Positions 35,184-35,316 of a stretch of 64,000 nt of DNA are shown piece after piece. Below the pieces are notes generated by a model. The model was not told the DNA's origin. It ran no database searches and worked only from the letters and a program-made list of their open reading frames with translations. Position numbers and translations under genes: made by a program. Within the stretch, counting starts at the first letter, position 1. Each line of letters starts with the position of its first letter. Origin of the DNA: Escherichia coli (GTDB lineage: Bacteria; Pseudomonadota; Gammaproteobacteria; Enterobacterales; Enterobacteriaceae); NCBI RefSeq assembly GCF_050920415.1, contig NZ_CP169309.1. One strand, given 5' to 3'.

Positions 35184-35316
35184 GACCAAATCCTGTGGGT
35201 TTCTTTACAAGGATAAATCTTTACTTGATTTTAGTGTATTCGATCCTTTTGCAACTTGCATGTTAATTTAAACTTGATGTATTCTTGATTTATAAAGTTA
35301 ATATTGGTGCTTTGTT
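35184..35316. promoter_or_regulatory. cI-cro divergent promoter/operator region (PRM/PR analog)
   Basis: 133-bp AT-rich intergenic region between divergent cI and cro with repeated CTTGAT-containing motifs. Confidence 0.6.

Follow-up and report, generated by a model that had tools for sequence, protein, structure and literature searches.

The analysed stretch of Escherichia coli DNA (64,000 nucleotides of contig NZ_CP169309.1, hereafter the window) very probably harbors the immunity switch of a lambdoid prophage, in which 17-bp operators are placed both between the divergent cI and cro genes and at the early-left promoter on the other side of cI. The operator sites, their statistical significance, their conservation among relatives and their linkage to cI were observed in silico. 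The functional unit, as read from the sequence, appears to be the 17-bp palindrome ATCAAGT-N3-ACTTGAT, of which the hexamer CTTGAT is a half-site. The concept is that of the textbook lambdoid switch, and the control found on the left side corresponds to the expected OL/PL arrangement.

The 437-aa ORF found at 29276-30589 was the counterpart of the tyrosine integrase from a prophage of E. coli O39:NM F8704-2, whose cI-cro intergenic region was identical to that of the window. Therefore, the window contains an E. coli lambdoid prophage, which runs rightwards from this integrase gene. In F8704-2, the order of the prophage was int-xis, the early-left genes, an HTH protein and cI, followed by cro, Rha, ash and the replication genes. 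Of 5426 complete E. coli genomes, 135 (~2.5%) contained the intergenic region of the window. In the cI protein, an HTH_3 domain at the N-terminus is combined with a Peptidase_S24 domain at the C-terminus, in which the GDSM and VKRL motifs aligned to UmuD and supplied the Ser/Lys dyad characteristic of the S24 domain, and these two motifs, as well as C98-G99, were invariant across lineages. In a PDB sequence search with cI, the C-terminal domain matched UmuD and LexA only, and the N-terminal one gave only a marginal match to the 434 repressor. The predicted leader of cI comprises ~43 nt and carries an AGGA ribosome-binding site, so the transcript is not leaderless. The cro-like gene is divergent from cI across a gap of 133 bp (35184-35316), and cro homologues occupied the equivalent position in every lineage looked at. 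The coordinates of these genes and of the sites discussed below are gathered in Table 1.

Table 1. Genes, predicted promoter elements and operator sites of the proposed immunity region (positions in the window; scores in bits from the weight matrix).
Feature	Sequence	Position	Strand	Remarks
First gene of the leftward operon (the 'cassette' of the original prediction)		33887..34348	-	153 aa; C-terminal HTH_3, 1e-11
OL3, weaker	TTCAATTTAAAATTGTT	34358..34374	-	16.0 bits; starts 21 bp past the OL1 start
OL1	ATCAATTATAACTTGAT	34379..34395	-	25.9 bits; one mismatch to the consensus; best site of the window
Putative early-left promoter (PL-like)	TTGACA, 17 bp, TAATAT	34402..34430	-	10/12 consensus match
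OL2	ATCAATTTTTTCTTGAC	34426..34442	-	21.7 bits; overlaps the -35 TTGACA (34430..34425)
Terminator-like intrinsic hairpin ending the cI transcript		34466..34482	-	predicted by scan
cI repressor gene		34494..35183	-	229 aa; Pfam Peptidase_S24 4e-17, HTH_3 4.9e-8
Site A (OR3-like)	ATAAATCTTTACTTGAT	35213..35229		17.4 bits; overlaps the predicted PRM start
Predicted PRM -10	TACACT	35233..35238	-	predicted start ~35226
Predicted -35 of PR (+) and of PRM (-)	TTGCAT (ATGCAA on the minus strand)	35256..35261		
Site C (OR2-like)	GTTAATTTAAACTTGAT	35262..35278		19.7 bits; in every lineage
Predicted PR -10	TATTCT	35280..35285	+	predicted start ~35292
Orphan half-site	TCTTGAT	35283..35289	+	overlaps the predicted PR -10/start region
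Site E (OR1-like)	ATAAAGTTAATATTGGT	35292..35308		14.2 bits; ~+1 to +17 of PR
cro-like gene		35317..35616	+	99-aa HTH protein; Pfam YdaS_toxin 1.9e-12, P22_Cro 8.7e-5

To the right of cro, a GC-rich hairpin with an 11-bp stem was observed at 35640-35669, between this gene and the following one. The scan called it as terminator-like on the minus strand, where a T-run follows the hairpin, and it could also act as an early-right terminator on the plus strand. The product of the gene placed after cro (35693-36547, +) is antirepressor-like, with ORF6N and KilAC/ANT domains, and is replaced by a Rha/Roi-type DNA-binding protein in the three close relatives examined. Further downstream, the adjacent ORFs 36753-37433 and 37415-38287 (+) presented similar N-termini (...QHIDSA.SGRYTV.APYKAGAG...), and their counterparts in a related genome are both annotated as 'ash family' proteins; on both grounds they were considered a tandem duplication.

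The original prediction had called attention to repeated CTTGAT and CTTGCA motifs in the cI-cro gap and to another CTTGAT-like copy near 34380. The copies are indeed present, CTTGAT being found on the plus strand at 35224-35229, 35273-35278 and 35284-35289 and on the minus strand at 34384..34379, with CTTGCA at 35255-35260. As evidence, the hexamer alone was unconvincing, since the three copies within 133 bp had a probability of 1.3e-4 that became ~0.06 when corrected for the ~480 intervals of that size. Moreover, CTTGAT was not enriched across the whole window (45 copies versus 38.5 expected), which indicated that the hexamer was the wrong unit. The motif search proposed with the prediction showed no enrichment of the hexamer across the window, and it succeeded when the 17-bp palindrome was used instead, which clusters in both control regions. 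The assignment of the motifs to the cI-cro operators held for the copies at 35224 and 35273, which are the right half-sites of the palindromes at 35213-35229 and 35262-35278, and failed for the orphan at 35284. CTTGCA had to be dropped as a copy of the motif, as it belongs to the predicted promoter hexamer TTGCAT and had no matching left half-site in any lineage. The inverted-repeat nature of the sites, the right operator at 35292-35308, which lacks CTTGAT, and two further left-hand sites had been missed.

The palindrome was recognized in an alignment of the region left of cI that comprised PhiR49_2, Stx2 phages, phi467 and IMG/VR loci. Positions 34395..34379 of the window read ATCAATTATAACTTGAT. 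In lineages with 79-80% cI identity, the palindrome at the corresponding positions was perfect (ATCAAGTTTAACTTGAT), and the consensus ATCAAGT-N3-ACTTGAT was therefore derived. When ATCAAGTNNNACTTGAT was searched with up to three mismatches, nine matches were found in the window against 2.79 expected, a count reached by none of 100 shuffles, and five of the nine fell in 34379-35278. A weight matrix was then applied, whose training set consisted only of the left-operator sites of relatives, the window and all cI-cro sequence being excluded. At a threshold of at least 10 bits, it returned three sites in 35184-35316 and three in 34349-34493, and three sites per region were obtained in none of 5000 local dinucleotide shuffles for either control region. 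Outside these two regions, only three other sites in the 64 kb reached 10 bits. When all 5-mer inverted repeats with spacers of 0-12 bp were enumerated without bias, ATCAA-N7-TTGAT ranked first among the non-low-complexity repeats, both in the window and in the related locus L077. An exact-repeat search over 35150-35350 reported only an unrelated 8-mer pair, because exact seeds cannot capture operator copies as degenerate as these. Neither the OL2-OL1 interval nor that separating sites A and C contained a 17-mer scoring above background that could represent a middle operator.

The top operator-like 17-mer outside both control regions was ATTAATTTTATTTTGAT (31949-31965, 14.9 bits), placed in the first codons of the ORF 31691-31972 (-), which could be an additional repressor site or a random match in AT-rich coding DNA. 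Weaker 17-mers of 10-11 bits were observed at 33639-33655, adjoining a minus-strand element, TTGATG-18-TAAAAT (33638..33609), that resembles a promoter, and at 34531-34547, within the coding sequence of cI at its 3′ end. An 11-bp perfect palindrome, TGCAACTTGCA (35250-35260), was considered as an operator and discarded for being unconserved, as Stx2 phages have TGAAACTTGCA and phi467 has GTGGACTTGCA there.

On the right side, the same order of elements was found in 49 distinct cores, namely, site A, TAnnnT, 17 bp, TTGCAT, site C, (T/G)AnnnT, site E, GGTG and ATG; many of the related loci are close kin, and the truly independent lineages number roughly ten rather than 49. In these cores, site A ends in CTTGAT and is followed by 3-4 nt and A(G/T)T(G/T/C)TA, whose reverse complement is TACACT, TAAACT, TAAAAT or TAGACT. 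The TTGCATGT anchor was identified in 75 of the 76 loci with enough sequence. Among close lineages, the variation within sites was central and the outer half-site bases were fixed, as illustrated by site A, in which the outer five bases of each half were invariant and only the center varied. The position of site A, 49-50 bp left of site C, was constant in all lineages looked at, and site E was found 30-31 bp right of site C, abutting the cro ribosome-binding site GGTG. Site E conserved a skeleton composed of T2, AAGTT at 4-8, A10 and TTGG at 13-16.

The relative strength of the outer sites differed between lineages. In most of the diverged ones, site A was the lowest-scoring (~7-13 bits) and site E the highest, with 18-25 bits in most and 14-15 bits in three. 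In the lineage of the window, site E reached 14 bits, with the right half TATTGGT instead of ACTTGAT, and site A reached 17 bits, a pattern that points to the decay of site E in this lineage. The orphan CTTGAT at 35284 lacks an acceptable left half, and the 17-mer at 35273-35289 was not among the sites of at least 10 bits; this half-site is CTTGTG in the variants L005 and L012 and is absent where cI is 74-80% identical. It was observed that in L005 and L012 the left half of site E is restored to ATCAAGT and the orphan CTTGAT is lost, which may be a compensatory change.

Two divergent promoters can be predicted in this framework. From the sequence, PR would be composed of TTGCAT, an 18-bp spacer and TATTCT, and PRM of ATGCAA, a 17-bp spacer and TACACT. 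The hexamer TTGCAT was found in 48 of the 49 distinct cores, with TTGTAT in the remaining one, and always abuts site C. TAnnnT was located exactly 17 bp from ATGCAA in 49/49 cores, despite the diverged spacer sequence, and (T/G)AnnnT occurred 16-18 bp after TTGCAT in 48/49. In this configuration, site C fills the predicted PR spacer, and its center lies ~44 bp upstream of the predicted PRM start. Both promoters are weak matches to the consensus, TTGCAT and ATGCAA agreeing at three of the six -35 positions each, and a generic promoter scan called neither PR nor PRM, the former falling below threshold. An alternative PR (TTGATG, 19 bp, TAATAT, with the -10 at 35299-35304) was rejected for being unconserved in diverged lineages and for yielding a cro transcript without the conserved GGTG. 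An alternative PRM -10 (TAAAAT, 35233..35228, with a 15-16 bp spacer) was less consistent across lineages than TACACT at 17 bp. It is tentatively proposed, with less than even confidence, that both divergent promoters use one shared -35 element, read as TTGCAT by PR and as ATGCAA by PRM.

On the left side, a TTGACA-17-TAATAT element was found directly past the cI terminator hairpin (34482..34466), which we infer to be the early-left (PL-like) promoter; its -35 and its TAnnnT hexamer were fixed in position while the spacer diverged between lineages. No minus-strand terminator-like hairpin was found between this element and int. OL2 is conserved in relatives. OL1 begins 6 bp after the PL -10, covering the predicted transcription start, includes the CTTGAT near 34380 and is the perfect palindrome ATCAAGTTTAACTTGAT in most of the diverged lineages. 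For OL3, the score rose to 19.1 bits in phi467-type relatives, and the lineages with 79-80% cI identity lack this site. The starts of OL2 and OL1 were 47 bp apart in most lineages, the phi467-type relatives having 48 bp. It had been suggested that the copy near 34380 might extend the control exerted by the repressor beyond PR and PRM. This expectation was supported insofar as that copy is half of the best palindrome of the window (34379-34395) and sits on a strong predicted promoter; what it reflects is the normal OL/PL control and not an additional regulon.

The first gene of the leftward operon varies among relatives. The 153-aa HTH protein of the window matched phrog_4836 ('CII-like regulator', 1.3e-76), and other versions have 243 aa in Stx2 phages and 142 aa in phi467, in which the protein is annotated as DicA. 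In the loci L077, L083 and L084, the first leftward genes are unrelated to the 153-aa protein and present neither an HTH nor a Pfam match. Next to this gene, an 82-aa ORF (33648-33896, -) matched phrog_23054 (2.4e-49), and a convergent 75-aa ORF (33491-33718, +), overlapping it by ~70 nt, matched phrog_20080 (5.5e-42). Both may be real because both match phage protein families; in the closely related prophage L085, RefSeq annotates only the plus-strand counterpart of the pair.

The linkage of these sites to the repressor was revealed by a pattern search in IMG/VR with ATCAA-N7-TTGAC-N29-31-ATCAA-N7-TTGAT, which retrieved at least 120 stretches, 80 of them listed. A cI homologue with 74-100% identity ended just upstream of the left pattern in 78 of the 80 matches listed, the remaining two being one truncated match and one apparently occurring by chance. 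Since the search fixed the outer five bases of each half-site, their conservation in its matches is partly circular. Among the matches listed, the unconstrained inner positions of the left palindromes stayed GT and AC, and the 30 bp between the OL2 and OL1 palindromes were wholly different between lineages. Site positions and spacings were also kept across related E. coli prophages and Stx2 phages in which the sequence between the sites had diverged.

The proteins encoded beside the sites showed a parallel conservation. The cI segment GVSAQSVQYWTTGKTFPR, which presumably corresponds to the recognition helix, was invariant in five lineages, down to 80% cI identity, and the lineages at 74-76% identity presented GVSTQTVVYW or GVSAQTVVYW with the same operators. 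On alignment to the 434 repressor, Gln and Tyr are retained at the putative base-contacting positions of cI. In a diverged lineage, the first 50 residues of cI were 98% identical to the CI of the Klebsiella phage ST16-OXA48phi5.3. Cro homologues retained AIAxxLGxTPQAVNQWF, and cI and Cro co-occurred in every lineage.

This co-occurrence bears on which protein occupies the sites. In the characterised lambdoid switches of lambda, 434 and P22, cI and Cro share their operators. An unlikely alternative is that the sites serve the Cro-like (YdaS-family) protein alone or cI alone, and not both as in lambda. Both proteins keep their HTH segments in the lineages sharing the operator consensus, so that the sequence cannot assign the sites to one of them. 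However, the operator sharing of the characterised switches speaks against such a division, and the presence of sites at the left promoter and at the start of the cI promoter itself fits a self-regulating lysogeny repressor. The preferred reading remains that cI, presumably together with the Cro-like protein, recognises the palindromes.

It is considerably less probable that the left palindromes are autoregulatory sites of the 153-aa HTH protein rather than targets of cI. This protein has an HTH_3 domain, is encoded by the first gene downstream of the left sites and belongs to a family that PHROGs labels as a regulator. However, L077, L083 and L084, whose first leftward genes encode no such protein, keep perfect ATCAAGTTTAACTTGAT left operators at equivalent positions, which excludes the 153-aa protein as the binder. 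The identical motif also fills the cI-cro region, and the left pattern lies beside cI in nearly all of the IMG/VR matches listed. No more credible is the notion that the repeats have no repressor role and arise from chance or from the composition of AT-rich DNA, from -35-like TTGA hexamers or from IHF-like WATCAA sites: the unenriched CTTGAT with its corrected probability of ~0.06, the fact that the PL -35 coincides with the right half of OL2, and the resemblance of TATCAATTTTTTC to the IHF consensus, which is WATCAANNNNTTR, would be compatible with it, but the absence of three-site regions among the dinucleotide shuffles and the maintenance of both palindrome halves and of site spacing while the flanks diverge are not, and the IHF reading was rejected because the perfect 7+7 palindromes of diverged lineages do not fit that consensus.

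The arrangement shares several features with that of phage lambda. In both, a repressor that joins an N-terminal HTH to a LexA-like S24 autopeptidase domain at the C-terminus faces a small, divergent Cro-type HTH gene, here across the 133-bp gap; three partly symmetric 17-bp operators lie over back-to-back promoters, which are predicted ones in the window; and further operators, here OL1-OL3, are found on the early-left promoter beyond cI. OR2 of lambda lies at -42, and the middle right site has a comparable location here, ~44 bp before the start predicted for the cI promoter. As in lambda, the cro-proximal site is the strongest and the cI-proximal site the weakest in most relatives. However, the operator differs from lambda, whose half-sites are of the TATCACCGC type, and neighboring sites stand 49 and 30 bp apart on the right side and 47 and 21 bp apart on the left, in contrast to ~23-24 bp in lambda. 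In addition, PR and PRM appear to have one common -35 hexamer, cI is not leaderless, Cro is of the YdaS family, and the first leftward gene encodes an HTH protein where lambda has N. Two features are possibly unusual, namely, the large distances between operators (49, 30 and 47 bp) and the -35 hexamer that both promoters apparently use.

Among named lambdoid phages, the DNA-binding domain was not that of lambda, 434, P22 or HK022, the best named cI relatives being less than 40% identical; HK022 CI and the cI of the lambda variant Lambda_4C10 were ~37% identical to that of the window. The operator consensus also differs from those known for lambda, 434, P22 and HK022. The only solved N-terminal relative found was the 434 repressor (2r63, E = 0.0095), at marginal sequence similarity, with which the proposed system shares a palindromic operator and a glutamine-containing recognition helix. 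The 434 operator has 14 bp (ACAA-N6-TTGT), compared with 17 bp here, and its half-site ACAAG resembles the TCAAG found here. Much closer are the LC5678xx Stx2a/Stx2d phages, PhiR49_2 and phi467, whose cI proteins are 88-100% identical and which present the same operator set and geometry, with genes downstream of the left promoter that differ among them. In particular, the Stx2a phage LC567818 (L002) and the Stx2d phage LC567830 (L003) carry cI proteins that are 93-94% identical together with the same operator set. For the Klebsiella phage ST16-OXA48phi5.3, the likeness covers only the first 50 residues of a diverged-lineage cI. In all these phages, the genes are annotated only as 'cI', 'Cro' or 'transcriptional regulator', and literature string searches found no description of an ATCAAGT/ACTTGAT operator, nor one for the related phages, including PhiR49_2.

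These observations suggest how the switch may operate. The LexA-like cI, and presumably also the Cro-like protein, would recognise the ATCAAGT-N3-ACTTGAT operators. Occupation of sites C and E together would shut off cro and the early-right genes, and repressor bound at site C, ~44 bp upstream of the PRM start, could activate PRM. Site A, placed over the PRM start, would limit cI synthesis at high repressor levels. On the other side, repressor bound at OL2, over the -35, and at OL1, over the start, would silence the early-left operon, whose first gene encodes the 153-aa HTH protein. Upon SOS induction, self-cleavage of cI, probably at Cys98-Gly99, would lift the repression on both sides. If the shared -35 element is real, one dimer at site C would simultaneously occupy the PR spacer and a position ~44 bp upstream of the PRM start, and the switch would be a more compact and mutually exclusive version of that of lambda. 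The decay of the cro-proximal operator in the lineage of the window may shift the balance of this switch.

Altogether, the analysis defines, by sequence alone, the operator set of an immunity type that ~2.5% of the complete E. coli genomes carry, together with the likely layout of its promoters. Several Stx2a- and Stx2d-converting phages share this immunity type, and a Klebsiella prophage encodes a relative of its repressor family. Phages with this repressor and operator set should be mutually immune, and the L002 and L003 Stx2 phages should fall in the immunity group of the prophage of the window. In the Stx2 phages, the repressor and its operator set would be expected to gate induction and, hence, the release of Shiga toxin.
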